DNA of 64,000 bases. Source: Minutocellus sp. GHC0000111. Its lineage: Eukaryota. Every line of letters starts with the position of its first letter. Position 1 is the stretch's first letter. A program made the translations under genes and the position numbers. Below, piece after piece: positions 52,028-61,200 of this stretch. The stretch is taken from the NCBI GenBank assembly GCA_977018835.1, contig OZ361258.1, positions 3,286,001 through 3,350,000 on the forward strand, written 5' to 3'. The notes under the pieces were generated by a model, which saw only the letters and a program-made list of their open reading frames with translations, ran no database searches and was not told where the DNA came from.

Positions 52028-52520
52028 TTAGAGAGCCTTCTTGGAAAGGAAGTCGGTGTGCTCCTGGTAGGGGGAGGTGGTGAGGGCGTTCTCCTTCCAG
52101 AGCTCGGGGCTGAGGTATCCGTAGGTCTTGGAGAGGGCGTAGAAGATGGCCTTGATGTAGTTGCCCATGGTACGGGTGTGACCACGGGCGGAGGAGTAGC
52201 AGTCGTCGACGCCGGCCATGTGCAGGAGCTTCTTACCGGCGATGGAGGAGACGAGCCCGGTACCGCGGGGGGCGGGGATGAGGCGGACGCGGACGGAACC
52301 GCACTTGCCGGTGACCTTGCAGGGGACGGTGTGGGGAAGGCCGGACTTACGGCCCCAGAATCCACGGCGGACGGGGGCGACGTTGAGCTTGGCGGCGGTG
52401 ATGGCACCGCGGATGGCGGTGGCGACCTCGGAGGAGCACTTGACGCCGAGGCCGATGTGGCCGTTGGAATCGCCGACGGCGACGAAGGCCTTGAAGCGGG
52501 TGCGCTGACCGGCGGAGGAC

Positions 52521-52555
<35 letters not shown>

Positions 52556-52972
52556 CTGGAGGCGGTCCTTGAGGAAGAAATCGATGATCTCGGCCTCCTT
52601 GACGGGGAGGGAGAAGAGGAAGATCTCCTCAATGCTGCCAATCTTGCCCTCCTTCACGAGACGGCCGAGCTTGGTGACGGGAGTCCAGACGTTCTCGTCA
52701 CGATCTCCGCGACCACCGCCGCGTCCAAGACCACGGCCACGGCCTGAAGAGAAGTGGGTAAAGCAAGGTATGCAATGGAGTCACATGGTAAGTCCAATGC
52801 AAAGGCAATTCCATTCAGAAAAAATGGGCCAACACATGAACTACTCGGGCCGATTATTTCGACCAAAAGCAGCACAAACAAACTACGCAACTAACTACTT
52901 ACCGCGACCACGGCCGCGACCGCGCTCACCACGGCCTCTTCCGAAGCCACCGCGTTCACCTTCGCCGGACAT
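52028..52972 (-). CDS. RPS2: 40S ribosomal protein S2 (uS5); intron ~52745-52900
   Basis: RGG-rich N-terminus [74 protein letters not shown]. Confidence 0.97.
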
Positions 52973-53084
52973 GATTGGAATATATTAGTACGGTGGTAGA
53001 GAGGGTACACCAAAAGTGAGCGGTGACAATTTTTTCCGCGGTTTACTTGCCGTACTAAAATAAATAACCTGATAAGCAGCACAA

Positions 53085-53094
53085 GCTCATAACC
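53085..53094 (+). promoter_or_regulatory. GCTCATAACC motif in the RPS2/RPL5 bidirectional promoter
   Basis: Exact 10-mer; partial copy ATAACC at 53064. Confidence 0.5.
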
Positions 53095-53131
53095 CAGGAA
53101 AACCTGGAAAACCTTGCCATCATGTGTGTTA

Positions 53132-53886
53132 TGTTAGTCCCAAAATGCGCACTGTCCCAGTTCGCGAACTGGGATCCCAGTTTGCGAACTAGGATTTATT
53201 TATCCCAGTTTGGAAACTGGGATCATAGGCACAATCTCAGTTTGCAAACTGGGATCAATCGAGAAATATAATGAATATTTAGCATGGATGATGTCGCCTT
53301 TGCTTCTCCTCGCTTCATTTTTTCATAGTGAAGCAACACAGCCCAAACCTGGTCCAGACGTCCAGACGACATTAGTGCCGGAGCTGATACTCAATAAATT
53401 GGCATTAGCTGATACTAAACACACATAGTGAATAAATAATAATATCTAGCTAGCTGCTTCTGGCAAATATAAGTCATGAACTGTACATGCATCTGTGCTA
53501 TGCCGCCGGCATCATGTTGCTACTGCACCAGTACATGTAGCTTGCAAATTCAAGATATGATGCACAGTGCAACTTGTATTGTAGATAGATCTACCAGTAC
53601 ATAATCATTGTGCATGAGCCAACACCGGCAGTTACCATTCTGACACTTGCCGAGAATGCCAGTTTCCAAACTGGTATTCATTTTTGTTCCAGTTCGCGAA
53701 CTCGTCTGGTTCCCAAATTCGGATTGGCGTGTTTATCTCAGTTTCCATTCTGGTAGTATCAGTGCGCAAACTGAGATCCTAGTTTGGGAACTGGGGCCCA
53801 GTGCGCAAACTGGGATAAATGAATCTCAGTTCGCAAACTGGGATCCCAGTTCGCGAACTGGGACAGTGCGCATTTTGGGACTAACA
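53132..53886. mobile_element. MITE (755 bp) with ~80-90-bp terminal inverted repeats, TA target duplication and palindromic subterminal repeats
   Basis: TA|TGTTAGTCCCAAAATGCGCACTGTCCCAGTTCGCGAACTGGGATCCCAGTTTGCGAACT... and ...AGTTCGCAAACTGGGATCCCAGTTCGCGAACTGGGACAGTGCGCATTTTGGGACTAACA|TA; no transposase ORF. Confidence 0.93.
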
Positions 53887-53919
53887 TATATTTATTTCCT
53901 CCAATCCACCACCACCAAG

Positions 53920-54812
53920 ATGGTCTTCGTCAAGGTTCAAAAGTCCAAGGCGTACTTCAGCCGGTACCAGGTCAAGTTCCGCCGCCGCCGCGAGGGCCGC
54001 ACGGACTACCGCCAGCGCAAGCGCCTCGTCTGCCAGGCCAAGAACAAGTACCAGAGCCCCAAGTACCGCCTCATCGTCCGCTTCACCAACACCCAGGTCA
54101 TCTGCCAGATCGCCTACTCCCTCATCGACGGCGACCGCATCCTGTGCCAGGCCAACTCCAAGGAGCTCCCCCGCTACGGCCTCAAGGTCGGCCTCAAGAA
54201 CTACGCCGCCGCCTCCTCCAGAAGGTCGGCCTCGACGACGTCTACGAGGGCAACACCGAGATCGACGGCGAGGTCGTCTCCTGCGAGGAGGGAAAGAAGA
54301 CCTACTACGTCGACGAGGTCGACGAGGACAAGCGCCCCTTCCGCGCCCTCCTCGACGTCGGCTGCAAGGCCACCACCACCGGATGCCGCATCTTCGGCGC
54401 CCTCAAGGGGGCCGCCGACGGAGGCCTCGACATCCCCCACTCCGAGAAGCGCTTCCCCGGCTACGACCGCGACGCCAAGGAGTACGACGCCGACATGCAC
54501 CGCGAGCGCATCTTCGGCGGCCACGTCGGCGAGTACATGGAGTACCTCGAGGAGGAGGACAACCAGAAGTACCAGGAGTGCTTCGCCTCCTACATCGCCA
54601 ACGACGCCGACGCCGACGGCCTCGAGGAGCTCTACGAGTCGGTCCACGAGGCCATCCGGGAGGATCCCAGCCCCAGCGCCAAGAACGACTTCAGCCCCGA
54701 CAAGTCCTACAAGCGCAAGGCCAAGCTCACCCTCGAGGAGCGCAAGGCTCGCGTCCAGGCCAAGAAGGACGCGAAAATTGCGGAATTGGAGGCCGACTCC
54801 GATGACGAGTAA
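53920..54812 (+). CDS. RPL5: 60S ribosomal protein L5 (uL18), interrupted by a frameshifting deletion at ~54210
   Basis: [30 protein letters not shown]...GLKNYAAA then frame change to RLLQKVGLD...[24 protein letters not shown]. Confidence 0.93.
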
Positions 54813-54913: not shown

Positions 54914-55520
54914 TTAGTTCTGCTTCGCATTGCCAAAGTCAATGCTCCCATTCCTAGCCTTACCATGTGCCATGCCCTCTTCGACGTCCTTTTCAGTGGT
55001 ACTGGCAGCAGCAGCACCATCATCAACACCATCGATATCTGCATTCATCAATTCAGCGACATCCCTCAATGAATTGCAGCCTCTGGACATTAGAATGAGC
55101 TTATCCAATACCTTTGGGCTCATGGCAGATAGCTCTTTTAAGCTCAACAGAACAATCAGGATCGAGGTGAGACTCCCACCACCAAAGGCAGAGGCGGTGA
55201 GAAGCCCATATGCCGCCAGAGCACCCAGAAAGTGGGAGAGGATCGAAAAGTTCGTCGTCCACGCCAAACGATGAAAGAAGCTCCGGAAAGTCGTCCGTCC
55301 AAATATCCAAAAGGATTTGCGACTATTCTTTGCCGTTGACTCCGATCCCCGTGAGACGGCGTCCGCCGAACAACTCATGTAGATCATCTGCCCCTCACGT
55401 ATCATGGTTTCGCATTCTTGTACCTTCCCATACAGCATGTTGAACCATAGAAATGGAGCTCCCATTGTGATCAAGCCAAACCCCACAAATTCTGCCACAT
55501 ATGTGCCATAGTCGGACCCT
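54914..55520 (-). pseudogene. 3' fragment of a membrane protein gene (resembles the end of an ABC transmembrane domain); no ATG start
   Basis: Hydrophobic helices then ...LILMSRGCNSLRDVAELMNA; frame begins without ATG and runs into a stop inside the antisense of the RtcB presequence. Confidence 0.4.
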
Positions 55521-55549
55521 TGCAGTTGTTCCGTGTTCGAATTAGGAAT

Positions 55550-57184
55550 ATGAAGTTGTCGAATGCTCGTGCATCAATCCTGCCGGCCTTGCTAACCATC
55601 GCTGTCGGCACTACAGGCGCTGATGCCTTTGTCCTCTCTCGCGAAACGCCAAGGCACTTCAGTTCGCAGATTCGCAGCAGCAGCGCGGGAGGAGACGAAG
55701 ATTCGCCTACTAGCGAGTTTCCAAGGATTATAGAGACAAAGGGCGTGCCAATCTATTTGTACACGGATGACATTGAGTTCGAAGCCATCGAGCAGCTCAG
55801 GGTGCTTGCCGAGAGTCCCGTCCCAGTTGATTACGTATCGGCAATGCCAGGTGCTCATCTCGGAAAAGGAGTTACCATAGGCTCGGTATTTGCTTCAGAG
55901 AAGTACGTATGTCCGAATGCCGTGGGCGTGGATATTGGATGCGGAATGGCGGCTGTGCCCATCGATGGGCTGTACAAGAACCAACTGACAAACGATCAAA
56001 TGAACGAGATCCAACGGCTCATCAAGGAACAAATCCCAACTGGATTTGAGCAGCATCGCAAGACGCTGGAGGGGACCCGCGAGGTGTTGACGCAGATCAC
56101 CGATGAGGTGGAACCAACTCAGTACCTCAAGGACCAACTTTTGGAGCCTCGTGTCGCCGATCAGCTGGGCACCCTTGGAGGTGGCAATCACTTTCTCGAG
56201 GTGGTGTACGAGGAAGGTACCGAGCAGGTTTGGATCATGTTGCATTCAGGAAGTCGCAACATTGGCAATCGTGTCGCAACGCGGTACGACCAGGTGGCCA
56301 AAAGTTTGCTTTTGAGTCAGGGCGTGGACACCCAACCTCTTCGAGGTATTCACTACATGCCTATCGACTCGCAAGAGGGACAGAATTATCTACGCGACAT
56401 GGAGTGGTGTCAGCGCTACGCCTTTCATAATCGCCAGGCGATGCAAAATATCATTGAGACGATTGTGGAAAGGGTCACCGGCAAACAGGCCAACGTTGCG
56501 AAAGGGACCAACATCCATCACAACTATTGTGCCTGCGAAGATTGCGGTGATGGCAGGCGACTGTGGATAACCCGCAAGGGCGCGACGTCCGCAAAGGCAG
56601 GAGAGTACGGTATTATTCCCGGATCGATGGGTACTGGCAGCTACATCACCCGGGGCCGAGGAAATCTCTTGAGCTGGAATTCATCATCCCACGGTGCAGG
56701 CCGGAGAATGTCGCGAACGAAGGCAAAGGCAGAGATCGCTCAGAGTGATTTTGAAGACGTCATGAAAGGGATTGTTTGCGACACCACGCCGGCCGTCAAA
56801 GACGAAGCTCCGCAAGCATACAAGGATCTCAATGTCGTTATGAAGAATCAAGAGTCTCTCACTGATGTCGTTCACCACCTTCTCCCGTTGATCAATGTCA
56901 AGGGATTCGAAGAGAAGTCGAACAAGGTCCGACGTTCTTCTTCCACCACTCCCAAGTCGAAGACACAGAAGCTCAAGGAAAGGCGGGACTTGATCGAGAA
57001 GCAGATGGAAAGAAACCGAAAGAGTATCAACATCCTCTCTTGCAAACTAGAAACATCCGACTTCCTAGAGAAGGCGCCAAATGAAGTTGTGGAACACACC
57101 AAGGCCGCATTGGACAAACGGCTGAAGAGACAGGAAGCGTTGCTACGAAATTTGGAGGATGTGAATAAAGGGCTTTTGCTGTAA
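55550..57184 (+). CDS. rtcB: Bacterial-type RtcB 3'-phosphate/5'-OH RNA ligase with bipartite plastid presequence and C-terminal ValRS-like coiled coil
   Basis: MPGAHLGKGVTIGSV, AVGVDIGCGM, QLGTLGGGNHFLE, HSGSRNIG, IHHNY, TRKGATSA, IIPGSMG, SHGAGRRMSR, DEAPQAYKD, LINVKG; signal peptide ending ADA|FVL; intronless. Confidence 0.93.
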   Translation: MKLSNARASILPALLTIAVGTTGADAFVLSRETPRHFSSQIRSSSAGGDEDSPTSEFPRIIETKGVPIYLYTDDIEFEAIEQLRVLAESPVPVDYVSAMPGAHLGKGVTIGSVFASEKYVCPNAVGVDIGCGMAAVPIDGLYKNQLTNDQMNEIQRLIKEQIPTGFEQHRKTLEGTREVLTQITDEVEPTQYLKDQLLEPRVADQLGTLGGGNHFLEVVYEEGTEQVWIMLHSGSRNIGNRVATRYDQVAKSLLLSQGVDTQPLRGIHYMPIDSQEGQNYLRDMEWCQRYAFHNRQAMQNIIETIVERVTGKQANVAKGTNIHHNYCACEDCGDGRRLWITRKGATSAKAGEYGIIPGSMGTGSYITRGRGNLLSWNSSSHGAGRRMSRTKAKAEIAQSDFEDVMKGIVCDTTPAVKDEAPQAYKDLNVVMKNQESLTDVVHHLLPLINVKGFEEKSNKVRRSSSTTPKSKTQKLKERRDLIEKQMERNRKSINILSCKLETSDFLEKAPNEVVEHTKAALDKRLKRQEALLRNLEDVNKGLLL

Positions 57185-57570
57185 TTTGATCAAATTGTAA
57201 AAGGATCGTATTAGCGCTTACTAATCTATAGTAGATCTACGTATGCATGACAATTTTCTACAAAGACGTTCTATCAGATTGACATGAGGCGATGGGAAGT
57301 GAAGAAAGTAGATCAAGCAAAGAAAGCCGGAAGTATTTACTCATAACGCCGCTTGCGTATTTGTTGACCCAGCTAGCGGTTAAATAGCTCGGTCTACCCG
57401 AAGCGCATAGGACTGGTACCGGTAGAGCTCTAAGCGCACTGATTCCTGCCTGTTCGCCGATCGATGGAGCTACCAAAAGGGGAAAAAAGGAAGAAAAAGG
57501 TGAAGATCTTTCAATCTCAGATCTTCTGCATGGCAAAATGAGATACCTGCCGCCCCACCAGCAACCAACC

Positions 57571-59127
57571 ATGCATCTTGGTATTAGGTCGGTCTGCCTT
57601 CTCTATTTATCGTCGCCGTCGGCTGCATTCCTCGTACCTGCGGCCACTTCCGCCAGCAACGGCAAAGCCTGCTGGCGGTCTGACCAGCACAGTGATGGAA
57701 AGATTCGCTTCTCGATCTTGACGGCACTTGCTCCTCAGAACGAGAAGCAGGGCGGTCAGGCTAATATCGAAGGAGAAGAAGCAAGTTCAGATGGGATTGC
57801 TGAATCAGGTGTCTTTCTCCATGGCTTTGAGGCCGATCTGGACCAGAAGATGGATGATCTGAAGGCTCAGTATGAGGAGTACAAAGAGTTTTCGGGCTCG
57901 TCGGCGGGAAGAATCGATAACAAGGTGAAGAGCAAAGTAGACGACGGAAGCAAGGACGACGAAACAGAAACCCCCGCCATAACGAGTACTGATCCAAATG
58001 CTAGAGGAAGCTATGGGTATGTGACCACTGGCGATCGTCAGTTGACCGCAGCACAGCTGGAAGTTTTGTTTTTGGTTCCGCGAGAGCTGTGTGCTTTTGC
58101 ATTATTTTTCCTCGAAATCTCTCCATCCTCATCTCAAGAGATCCATATCATTCTGTTTTTGCTGTTTCTTTGGTTTGCCAGGGATGAAGAATATCCTGCT
58201 CCGTACTACACTCCTCCGCCCAATTTCTTCGCTCTTGCGACAAATCAATTTGTTCGCAATCTCGATTCCATGTTGGGAAGGAACAAGGCAACGACAAGCA
58301 AGGGCGACGAGACAGTAGATCTCAGAGCCAAGTTGAACTCGCTGAAACTTCCATCTTGGGATCTTGAAAGCATCGCAGGAGGATCGCTCGGTGTGATAAA
58401 AGAGCCTCTCGTTCTTCGATCACCTTACCACTTGCTTTGTCCTCTCATCGACCTTGTCTATAAGCAGCCTGACGATAAGTTGAACTCGGGAAGCGCCATT
58501 CAACGCCTATACATAATGGAGAAGATTGGTCGGGCACCATATCTCTCCTTTCTTTCTATGTTGAATCTTTATGAATCATTTGGCCTTTGGCGCCCTTCTG
58601 AAGATTTGAGGGTGGCCCATGCCCACCAGGAGTTATCCAAATTCAGAAGACAGAGGATGATCGAACAACTCGGTGGAGATCAGACCTGGACGGCTAGATT
58701 CATTGCAGAACATGCTGCATTGTTTGCCCATCTCACAATCGTTCACCTGTGGTTTCTTTCGCCAAGCCTTGCCTATCGTTTTGCCCAAATGATTGAAAGC
58801 CACGCCTTTCACACGTATGATGCCTTCCTTGAGCAAAATGAAAGTGCGCTCAAGTCGATGCCACTTTCATCCATTTCTGATGCCGACACCAGCACGCCCT
58901 ATTCGAATCTTTTTGAGATGTTCTCTAATTTCAAAGACGACAATTCCATTCACTCTATGAGGCTGGCAGAGGCTTACTATCCATCGGTGGTGTTAAATGC
59001 CGCAGATAGCGAAAAGAAACTATTTCTTGGTCTCTTTGTGACTCTCATGGTCCTAAATTTCCTGCCCTCTAGCCTCGGGGATGGCACTTTCGCCGCTCTT
59101 TTTGATAAGATGCCTGGTTGGCCCTGA
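57571..59127 (+). CDS. Plastid terminal oxidase (AOX/PTOX family)-like protein with degenerate di-iron site; probable intron 58017-58181
   Basis: SAA|FLVP presequence; RLYIMEKIGRAPYLSFLSMLNLYESFGLW, IEQLGGDQTWTARFIAEH, LSPSLAYRFAQMIESHAFHTY, NLFEMFSNFKDDNSIH align to PTOX consensus. Confidence 0.8.
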   Translation: MHLGIRSVCLLYLSSPSAAFLVPAATSASNGKACWRSDQHSDGKIRFSILTALAPQNEKQGGQANIEGEEASSDGIAESGVFLHGFEADLDQKMDDLKAQYEEYKEFSGSSAGRIDNKVKSKVDDGSKDDETETPAITSTDPNARGSYGYVTTGDRQLTAAQLEVLFLVPRELCAFALFFLEISPSSSQEIHIILFLLFLWFARDEEYPAPYYTPPPNFFALATNQFVRNLDSMLGRNKATTSKGDETVDLRAKLNSLKLPSWDLESIAGGSLGVIKEPLVLRSPYHLLCPLIDLVYKQPDDKLNSGSAIQRLYIMEKIGRAPYLSFLSMLNLYESFGLWRPSEDLRVAHAHQELSKFRRQRMIEQLGGDQTWTARFIAEHAALFAHLTIVHLWFLSPSLAYRFAQMIESHAFHTYDAFLEQNESALKSMPLSSISDADTSTPYSNLFEMFSNFKDDNSIHSMRLAEAYYPSVVLNAADSEKKLFLGLFVTLMVLNFLPSSLGDGTFAALFDKMPGWP

Positions 59128-59289: not shown

Positions 59290-61200
59290 TTGCATATAAT
59301 GTCGAAGGCAACCAATTATTTCCAAATATTCGCTTATGGAAGTGCTAGCTAAATATTGCCAGGTGCTTGATTGGTTGTGCACACTTGGCCCCTCAATGAA
59401 GCCCATTAGGAATGTTCGTCTACAATGTTTGCGATGATGCGCCACCGCCGGCACCCACGTGTTCGTGGATAGTAGCAACGTCTAGAAATAAATAGTCAAG
59501 GCATTTTACTAACAGCTACTGCTCGAAGAATTCCGCTAGCTAAATACGTATCCTAAGATGGAACTATGCTAGTGATGCTGAGTTCATTGTTATTTGTTGA
59601 GTTATACGCCTGGCCTCTTTGTTAAAGTCGACGATCTTCGTCATTTGTGTTAAAAATTACCGCATTTTAGATGACTTGCATCTATAACTTCCAACAACGA
59701 CATCGAACACCTCTCGTAGGTCAACCCATCTTTCTGAAATATCAATCAACGTTGTTTTCTGCCATCACCATGCACTAGTTGTGATTCCTTATCATTTGGT
59801 GTGACTCAACATTGACGACTTGGGTAAGGCCCCAGACCATTCCGGCGTCAGGTCTCACCATCTTACAATAACGACTGACAGTACCAAATTAACAAACATT
59901 CCAACATTTACTACCCTCAGAACTCCACCAGGCGCACAGTTGGGGTTGGTACTGTGCCAGTGATACTGACTCAGCGATTGATTGTTGATCGATAGGCCCT
60001 CAGCGATTGATTGTTGATCGATAGGCCCTAACCCTTCGTGGAGGTTGACGACCCGCCGAGTTTTGCGATAAATTGTTGAATTTTCCCTTCCAATGCATGT
60101 CTATAACTTTCCATGCCATTACAAAGTAGCTTTCACGAGCAACGCGGGCGATCAGGTATACTAAGGCGCGGCATGCAATACCCTCAATATGTGGTAGTTG
60201 TGATTCCTTGTCGTCCAGTGCCCACATTGGTGTTTCGAATCAGCACCCCGCGGAATCTGGCGTCAACCTCCACGAAACATTCAAATGCTATGTAATCACC
60301 AGTCTTTGCAGCAACCCCTCGAAACATTCCACCAATGAGCCCCATCATATCATATAAGGGCAAAAAAGGTTTTCGTGAGGTGACTGGACGCGCATGAGCC
60401 CAAACTATCGTCATGTTGGTAAATTATGCCCTCCCAGAACGATAAAAGTTACCCTTCAAAATAGTAACACGGTATGGTTTAGCCAAAATATCGACCCAGT
60501 TGCCAGAAGATTGTCATACGACCCGATTATATGTACATAATGTCCGAGAGGAAGCCTCGCTATCGTCAATTTGGCGTAGATTGGCATACCCCTTGAGAAA
60601 GTGATATCGCGGTGGAGAAGTTGATGAGAATCTGAGAGTTCTGGTTTTACTTGTTGGTTGTGTGAGAATGCAATAGGTTGCCAACACAAACTCAACAATC
60701 AACACATGCACTTCCATTCTTTAGTACATATCTTGGCAGGATTGAACGAGATTCAGCGCCTTGCTAACCAATTTCAAGAACTATTGCACATAATCTGATG
60801 TTGACGCCCATCCCAATGCCCAAAAAAATTTGGCAAATCCACAAAGTCCCAGCAAAATGATCCATTTGCTGACACCCAACCCGTCTCGCACGCGCTTCGA
60901 CCGCCCCGGTAGTATCACGGGAGAGAAATATCCAAAGTTGTAATGTGCCCCATACTGGCTTGGTTCTCATCTGTAGCCATATTGACGTTGAGGACCGGTT
61001 TTACGACGAAATCAGATTGTTGAATTTTTCGAGGGCGTCGGCGTTTTGCTACCATCGTGCTTCCGAACTGAATAACACTACCACACAATTGCCTCACGCT
61101 TGCGTTAAATTGATCTTTCGCGCCTTCAATTGTCGTCTATCTCCCATTTACTCGACTCCTTCGTTACTTTTCTCCGCGATTGTAGCCGTCGTGGAGGTCG
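59290..61200 (-). pseudogene. Decayed coding-like sequence with an internal ~420-bp degenerate duplication and a 29-bp tandem duplication
   Basis: Only short broken ORFs; TAGTTGTGATTCCTT at ~59776 and ~60195 (DKESQL on minus strand both times); TCTATAACTT at ~59681 and ~60100. Confidence 0.35.
59970..60029. repeat. Perfect 29-bp tandem duplication
   Basis: TCAGCGATTGATTGTTGATCGATAGGCCC at 59971-59999 and 60000-60028. Confidence 0.95.

Follow-up and report, generated by a model that had tools for sequence, protein, structure and literature searches.

The 64-kb stretch of DNA analysed here (the window) carries an intronless gene whose product joins a bacterial-type RtcB RNA ligase to a homologue of the C-terminal tRNA-binding arm of bacterial valyl-tRNA synthetase (ValRS), behind a predicted plastid-type presequence. 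Its parts are listed in Table 1, together with an upstream junction at which a segment is missing from the window.

Table 1. Positions of the fusion gene, its parts, and adjoining features in the window.
Feature	Position	Strand	Evidence
RtcB-ValRS-arm gene, intronless, 544 aa	55550..57184	+	Open frame, Pfam domains, RNA contigs
Predicted signal peptide, aa 1-26, cut ADA↓F	55550..55627	+	Hydrophobic 11-mer mean 2.32; ASAFind matrix best site 8.15
Predicted transit peptide and spacer, aa 27-55, Phe at +1, Ser/Arg-rich	55628..55714	+	Transit score 5.08; low confidence in model
Bacterial-type RtcB core, aa 56-452	55715..56905	+	Pfam, PDB matches, Foldseek, catalytic residues
Codon 101, GGT (Gly), at P. 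horikoshii Asp65 position	55850..55852	+	Alignment; X8, X9, RNA run X4
Basic Ser-rich linker, aa 453-473	56906..56968	+	pLDDT <50 at 452-468
ValRS C-terminal tRNA-binding arm homologue, aa 474-540, predicted helical hairpin	56969..57169	+	Profiles, predicted structure
3' UTR with poly(A) loose end at 57250	57185..57250	+	RNA run X5, one contig
Upstream junction; ~1,347 bases of X9 missing from the window	55540..55543	.	X9 contig; loose ends at 55540 in X1, X2, X3, X8

The fusion is real and lies on one transcript. RNA contigs tile 55540 to 57250 in overlapping pieces, and no splice joint falls within the 544-residue open frame, as expected from an earlier reading of the sequence alone (the sequence-only reading), which had called it intronless. 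One X1 contig (55852 to 57171) bridges core, linker, and arm with 0 differences and 0 gaps relative to the window, and an X5 contig (X5 and X6 are one sample) spans the stop codon and ends in poly(A); transcripts run on into the tail rather than stopping ahead of it. That the RNA runs of study P1 report transcripts is argued by a spliced joint in a neighbouring gene and by the interval from 59318 to 60000, which they leave uncovered. An artefact of gene modelling or assembly that fused two genes is excluded: one RNA contig bridges core and arm, a single 6-kb X9 contig spans the gene, and the fusion recurs in other sequences at 85 to 92% identity.

The core was identified with the Pfam RtcB family (PF01139), which covers residues 82 to 452 at 341.6 bits (E 1e-101) and is matched over its whole length (model positions 1 to 426 of 426). 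All nine PDB sequence matches of the whole protein are RtcB, and a Foldseek search with an AlphaFold model of the window protein (11-row alignment, pLDDT 64) listed RtcB chains in its best 14 rows (E 3e-19 to 6e-16). The compact, E. coli-style core claimed by the sequence-only reading is confirmed, with every motif that it quoted present in the translation; ahead of its HLGKG motif stands MPGAH, not MPDxH. The fold and the catalytic motif set are those of bacterial RtcB (E. coli RtcB1 type; PF01139; T. thermophilus 2EPG, P. horikoshii 4DWR), and the core is free of the insertions that appear in alignments with the archaeal and Thermus proteins. Unlike bacterial RtcB, the window protein is nuclear-encoded and has a bipartite plastid-type presequence, a ValRS arm, and, in the window allele, Gly at the Asp65 position. 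Human and metazoan RTCB, the ligase of the tRNA ligase complex, shares its family and chemistry but is more distant in sequence (E 2e-20, versus 3e-34 for Thermus); RTCB also differs in belonging to a multi-subunit complex and in having neither presequence nor arm. RtcB-PrfH systems have been described (PMC6514570, in the part available), and the window protein falls below the cut-offs of the RtcB2/PrfH-linked NCBIfam models TIGR03073 (123 versus 271.8 bits) and NF007153 (160 versus 407 bits).

We compared the core with a set of metal- and nucleotide-binding residues of P. horikoshii RtcB. In P. horikoshii numbers the residues tested were D95, C98, N202, H203, H234, H329, H404, and K480 (in part from the available text of PMC3973293). 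Their counterparts D128, C131, N213, H214, H232, H324, H381, and K451 are kept in 8/8 full-length fusion proteins, H381 being the equivalent of the guanylylated His.

Behind the core, the Pfam family Val_tRNA-synt_C (PF10458) matches residues 479 to 537 of the whole protein at 30.3 bits (cut-off, 25.9) and the tail alone at 36.5 bits (E 6e-9), and it scores above its cut-off in all seven fusion proteins scanned. Reciprocally, a profile built from three tails and searched against 1.84 billion representatives returned 36 matches at E<=0.001. PF10458 is present in 33 of these and the other 3 are long repetitive proteins; P0126, among the 33, ends in the window's own tail and sits on a contig as long as that of P0002, for which reason it is treated as another gene call of the P0002 locus. 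Ten matches were looked up by name, giving six ValRS, one class I tRNA ligase, and three unnamed proteins. Against the PDB, the same profile placed T. thermophilus ValRS first of six matches (E 0.005). A ValRS-arm profile scored the tail at 62.9 bits, a comparison that is partly circular, the tail having served to pick the rows of that profile; the best of 1000 shuffled tails reached 7.8 bits and the reversed tail 0.8. A generic coiled coil or a chance Pfam match is excluded by the return of ValRS arms in the reciprocal search and by the low scores of the shuffles.

The single-sequence model of the arm is a hairpin (pLDDT 91), and in the AlphaFold model the tail forms a helix, a short helix, and a helix (pLDDT 75 to 91) after a low-confidence linker. 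In the Atlas, all rows of the structure search were ValRS clusters (TM 0.81 to 0.88, below the tool's naming bar), as were the clusters found by features (0.86 to 0.87, below its 0.9 bar). Foldseek with the tail model gave no match at E<=0.001, which for a hairpin of 76 residues says nothing either way, and the rows listed by Foldseek and VIA-align against solved chains were unrelated hairpins, ValRS not among them. Because searches of solved chains gave generic hairpins only, the case for homology rests on sequence, and on those grounds the arm is a true ValRS homologue, as first read from the letters. With the bacterial ValRS C-terminal arm (PF10458; T. thermophilus 1GAX/1IVS) it shares a sequence profile, a turn motif (KL...F..KAP..VVE), and a predicted hairpin; it differs in being detached from the synthetase and its anticodon-binding domain and in the divergence of the start of helix 1, where conserved columns depart from the ValRS majority (e.g., Arg to Leu at 479). 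In ValRS, the arm touches the D/T-loop corner of the tRNA.

To place the fusion among its relatives, we scored the best 8000 candidates of a homologue search, from which 120 clusters were listed. Only P0002, P0003, and P0004 carry the arm among these 120; cluster look-up added P0122 to P0125, and a search with the tail added the fragments P0175 and P0176. The total is at least 10 sequences, including the window's own, of which 8 are full-length. A regional search missed P0002, so its low yield reflects low sensitivity and not absence. The sequence-only reading had suggested looking for the fusion in other diatoms: it does recur, in these ten or more sequences, but it is rare and belongs to one clade, with 3 of the 120 listed clusters.

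Phylogenetic analysis with FastTree (114 rows, with 11 truncated rows dropped) gathered the eight full-length fusions into one tight clade, and the four of them included in an IQ-TREE analysis (48 rows picked from the homologues fetched, LG+G4) grouped at 100/100. The fusion clade lies within a 41-row group (100/100) that includes rows named Amphora, Entomoneis, Cyclotella, and Thalassiosira. Since it nests among named diatom rows, the carriers are most likely diatoms, forming a small algal group. Phaeodactylum tricornutum and Thalassiosira pseudonana were not found among the rows listed, most of which are unnamed. Outside the 41-row group stand green-algal, dinoflagellate, Vitrella, and Leptospiraceae rows. 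In the list of 120, no rows bear a bacterial name except the Leptospiraceae-type RtcBs P0111, P0115, P0116, and P0121. These have a C-terminal domain of ~105 to 115 residues, for which P0111 gave no Pfam match.

Tails of other kinds are common in the diatom clade. The sequence-only reading held that RtcB normally ends at the VKG motif, which is false for the diatom orthologues: most continue for 11 to 44 Lys/Arg-rich residues, and the linker of the window protein occupies the place of this tail. Five diatom RtcBs (P0033, P0038, P0053, P0083, and P0088) have a longer basic tail of ~60 residues. Four of these (P0033, P0038, P0053, and P0088) fall in a second clade, here called clade B, and P0083 was too truncated for the tree; P0053/P0164 and P0088/P0165 are listed as pairs in this second tail group. 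Clade B tails hold 15 to 19 Lys plus Arg versus 6 to 12 Asp plus Glu and are, judged by eye, probably helical. Homology of the clade B tail to the ValRS arm found no support (best score, 4.8 bits; hhalign probability, 2.8%); tails of this type gave no Pfam match, and the one searched in the Atlas matched nothing there.

The signal peptide cleaved at ADA↓F, with Phe at +1, had been taken as a plastid-type presequence, and the ASAFind scoring matrix (Table S2 of PMC4329603; transit cut-off, 2) bears this out as a prediction. The best site is TGADA↓F27, with a cleavage score of 8.15 and a transit score of 5.08; the high-confidence examples in the available tables of that paper score 7.9 to 9.1 and 4.9 to 5.7. 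The window protein is accordingly predicted to enter the plastid by means of a signal peptide and a Phe-initiated transit peptide. We then applied a presequence filter of our own (score >=6; F, W, Y, or L at +1; hydropathy >=1.6, with a hydropathy window in place of SignalP). It passed 7/7 fusion proteins, 4/5 clade B rows (P0038, P0164, P0165, P0033, and P0032), and 0/29 other diatom-clade rows that have an N-terminus, three truncated rows being left out. The N-termini of those 29 rows are mostly Arg-rich and nonhydrophobic and look mitochondrial. On this pattern, the bacterial-type RtcBs of diatoms appear to comprise a plastid type and a mitochondrion type.

In the IQ-TREE phylogeny, the arm clade is sister to 32 rows without a plastid presequence (95/93), and an AU test does not reject a single group made of the arm clade and clade B (p-AU 0.25). 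The arm may have replaced a clade B tail, or it may have come with a separate retargeting to the plastid. Given this narrow distribution and the unlike tail of the other plastid-type diatom RtcBs, the arm is an addition peculiar to one lineage rather than something that plastid RtcBs share; five diatom RtcBs with an unrelated tail of ~60 residues show that a plastid-type RtcB needs no ValRS arm.

The window allele departs from its relatives at residue 101. This residue is Asp in 111 of the 113 homologues that cover the site, and both exceptions, P0002 and P0124, have Gly as in the window; among the other fusion proteins, Asp is kept in P0003, P0004, P0122, P0123, and P0125. The residue aligns with the Asp of the MPDGH motif of P. 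horikoshii RtcB, which we take to be Asp65. In the available text of PMC3973293, Asp65 is needed for formation of the His-GMP intermediate, and the D65A enzyme (a change to Ala, not Gly) shows no activity, which Archease does not restore. Because the residue matching Asp65, whose loss kills ligation, is Gly, the window allele is probably inactive. All catalytic residues tested are kept in 5/8 full-length fusion proteins, and, as far as their sequences tell, Asp101 alleles intact at every tested residue exist.

A sequencing error at codon 101 is excluded by the occurrence of the same letters in X8, X9, RNA run X4, and other protein records. The X8 and X9 contigs are identical to the window at this codon, and an X4 RNA contig, from another study, bridges it without a difference. 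Contigs from X1 and X3 start at 55852, directly past the codon, which fits the segregation of both alleles. A separate change is seen in P0122, which keeps Asp101 but has a deletion of 2 residues near the end of the core and differs at several places in the arm; a 6-base gap in RNA run X2 lies at the place matching this deletion.

The window also lacks sequence upstream of the gene. One X9 contig holds ~1,347 bases between 55543 and 55540 that are missing from the window, and the four junction bases match both sides. In X1, X2, and X3, RNA contigs extend at their 5' ends into the missing segment; the window is therefore without the promoter and the greater part of the 5' UTR, through either a real deletion or an assembly gap. 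The segment probably also holds the 5' part of a divergent gene: an ORF at 54914-55543 (-), without a Pfam match, has a frame open to the junction and may be 5'-truncated in the window. Gly101 in 3/8 full-length fusions, a core deletion in one, and the missing upstream segment suggest weak selection in the source species. The sequence-only reading had made no mention of Gly101, the missing ~1.35 kb, the narrow distribution, or the different tail of the other plastid-type RtcBs.

What the fusion protein does can be approached from its two halves. RtcB seals RNA ends that carry a 3'-phosphate or cyclic phosphate to ends with a 5'-OH, by way of His-GMP (PMC10275265 and PMC8051266, in the parts available), and nicked tRNAs, which persist folded and base-paired, have been proposed as substrates of an RtcB operon (PMC10159003, likewise in part). 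Combining this chemistry and these folded substrates with an arm that in ValRS sits at the tRNA corner, we arrive at a tRNA-docking ligase. The helical hairpin would hold the folded body of the L-shaped tRNA, the flexible 21-residue linker would let the core reach the broken loop, and the core would join a 2',3'-cyclic or 3'-phosphate end to a 5'-OH through His381-GMP. Our leading reading, for which we would claim a little less than an even chance, is a bacterial-type RtcB ligase with a ValRS arm, imported into the plastid, whose intact alleles dock and reseal nicked tRNA and whose Gly101 allele is probably inactive. We are more doubtful of the further proposition that the plastid RtcB of this lineage is a dedicated nicked-tRNA ligase with an elbow-reading ValRS arm, a natural enzyme whose one chain includes its own tRNA-specificity domain, that its sister plastid clade uses an unrelated hairpin, and that the plastid ligase itself is undescribed.

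A competing view, also doubtful though it deserves weight, is that the protein is a plastid RNA repair ligase in which the arm is a generic basic hairpin, tethering it to RNA, ribosomes, or a partner, with rRNA as much as tRNA as substrate; the arm would then do what the unrelated ~60-residue tail does in clade B. The Lys/Arg-rich tails of the diatom-clade orthologues are consistent with this, as are the clade B tails, similar in length and basic without ValRS homology, and since the AU test allows the arm clade and clade B to form one group, one tail may have replaced the other. Repair of 16S rRNA has, moreover, been reported for E. coli RtcB (PMC12699882, in the part available). Yet the six residues of the ValRS-specific turn (L498, F503, A507, P508, V511, and E513) are invariant in 8/8 tails compared, which goes beyond the needs of a generic coiled coil, although it may only keep the fold, and the helical nature of the clade B tails was judged by eye only.

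Sequence conservation bears on whether the arm has a role at all. When P0001 and P0004 are compared, the core is 94% identical, the arm 72%, the presequence 58%, and the linker 57%; the core is significantly more conserved than the arm, and the arm does not differ significantly from the presequence (p 0.12) or the linker (p 0.28). By columns, 20/29 ValRS-conserved positions are invariant in the eight compared tails versus 14/36 others (Fisher p 0.024), in a test whose tails are near-copies and whose ValRS rows were picked with the tail itself. This amounts to moderate evidence, at the level of sequence, that the ValRS-like fold of the arm is kept. All ten tails are in frame, at 92 to 93 residues, and the eight that were aligned have no indel within the arm, whereas the presequences have several.

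These figures cut both ways for a reading that we consider improbable, in which a 3' fragment of valS was captured in frame and the arm is a tolerated passenger without a role, on a dispensable gene decaying in the source species. That as few as 10 or so sequences (at least 10) carry the arm would fit, as would the segregation of Gly101 in nature, the allele with the 2-residue core deletion, the window's loss of 1.35 kb upstream, and an arm conserved not significantly above the presequence. A passenger would not, on the other hand, be expected to stay in frame in every tail and free of indels while presequences gain them, nor to keep ValRS-conserved columns preferentially, and the core remains nearly unchanged across the lineage. 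Least credible, and in our view very improbable, is that selection has kept the Gly101 form as a pseudo-enzyme, able to bind and protect nicked tRNA but not to ligate it. Gly101 does occur in three protein records on contigs of three different lengths, in X8 and X9, and in an RNA contig of X4, from another study, with the other tested catalytic residues kept. Only one base has changed, however, Asp alleles are found beside it in the same 90% cluster, the window copy also lacks its upstream region, and drift in a dispensable gene is the simpler account.

As to the origin of the arm, the final ~65 codons of a bacterial-type valS would have been added, in one lineage, after the basic tail already present on its RtcB. 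No donor was found: the arm's best matches are ValRS arms scattered among bacteria (32 to 51% identity); all 13 donor-candidate loci fetched encode ValRS, and rtcB is in the flank of none. A metagenome scan covered 25 of 64 parts. No valS remnant was found elsewhere in the 64-kb window, and because the GC3 of the arm (61%) equals that of the core (60%), no recent foreign source is visible in its composition.

Organelle-targeted bacterial-type RtcBs have precedents among protists in the mitochondrial RtcB of Trypanosoma and RTCB1 of diplonemids (PMC12699882, in part). Like the window gene, these are horizontally acquired bacterial-type ligases sent to an organelle, and function is unclear for both; they differ in being mitochondrial, where the window protein is predicted to be plastidial, and the available part of that paper does not mention a ValRS arm. 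Diatoms also have Trl1 homologues (PMC4090602, in part), which could serve nuclear tRNA splicing. The available text of PMC4893482 holds nothing on a ValRS arm, and we found no description of an RtcB-ValRS-arm fusion or of a diatom plastid RtcB in searches of one collection of openly licensed papers. The fusion is apparently undescribed, in line with the sequence-only reading, which knew of no such architecture. The in vivo targets and substrate choice of bacterial-type RtcB are still argued, and its fusion in nature to a tRNA-binding arm gives a Rosetta-stone hint at nicked tRNA as a target. It offers a clean comparison of arm-on and arm-off enzymes and points to RNA repair in secondary plastids, of which we found no description; its weight is limited by the narrow distribution and the probably inactive window allele.

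Downstream of the fusion gene, 57538-59127 (+) encodes an alternative oxidase-family protein (PF01786) which, because of its SAA↓F-type N-terminus, is probably a plastid terminal oxidase. RNA contigs place a GT..AG intron at 58016-58180 inside its open frame, and a longer skip is possible. On the other side, 52031-54812 holds divergent ribosomal protein genes for uS5/RPS2 and uL18/RPL5. Because RNA contigs have 22 extra bases at ~54206-54214 that are missing from the window, the RPL5 copy of the window may contain a small deletion or an assembly error.
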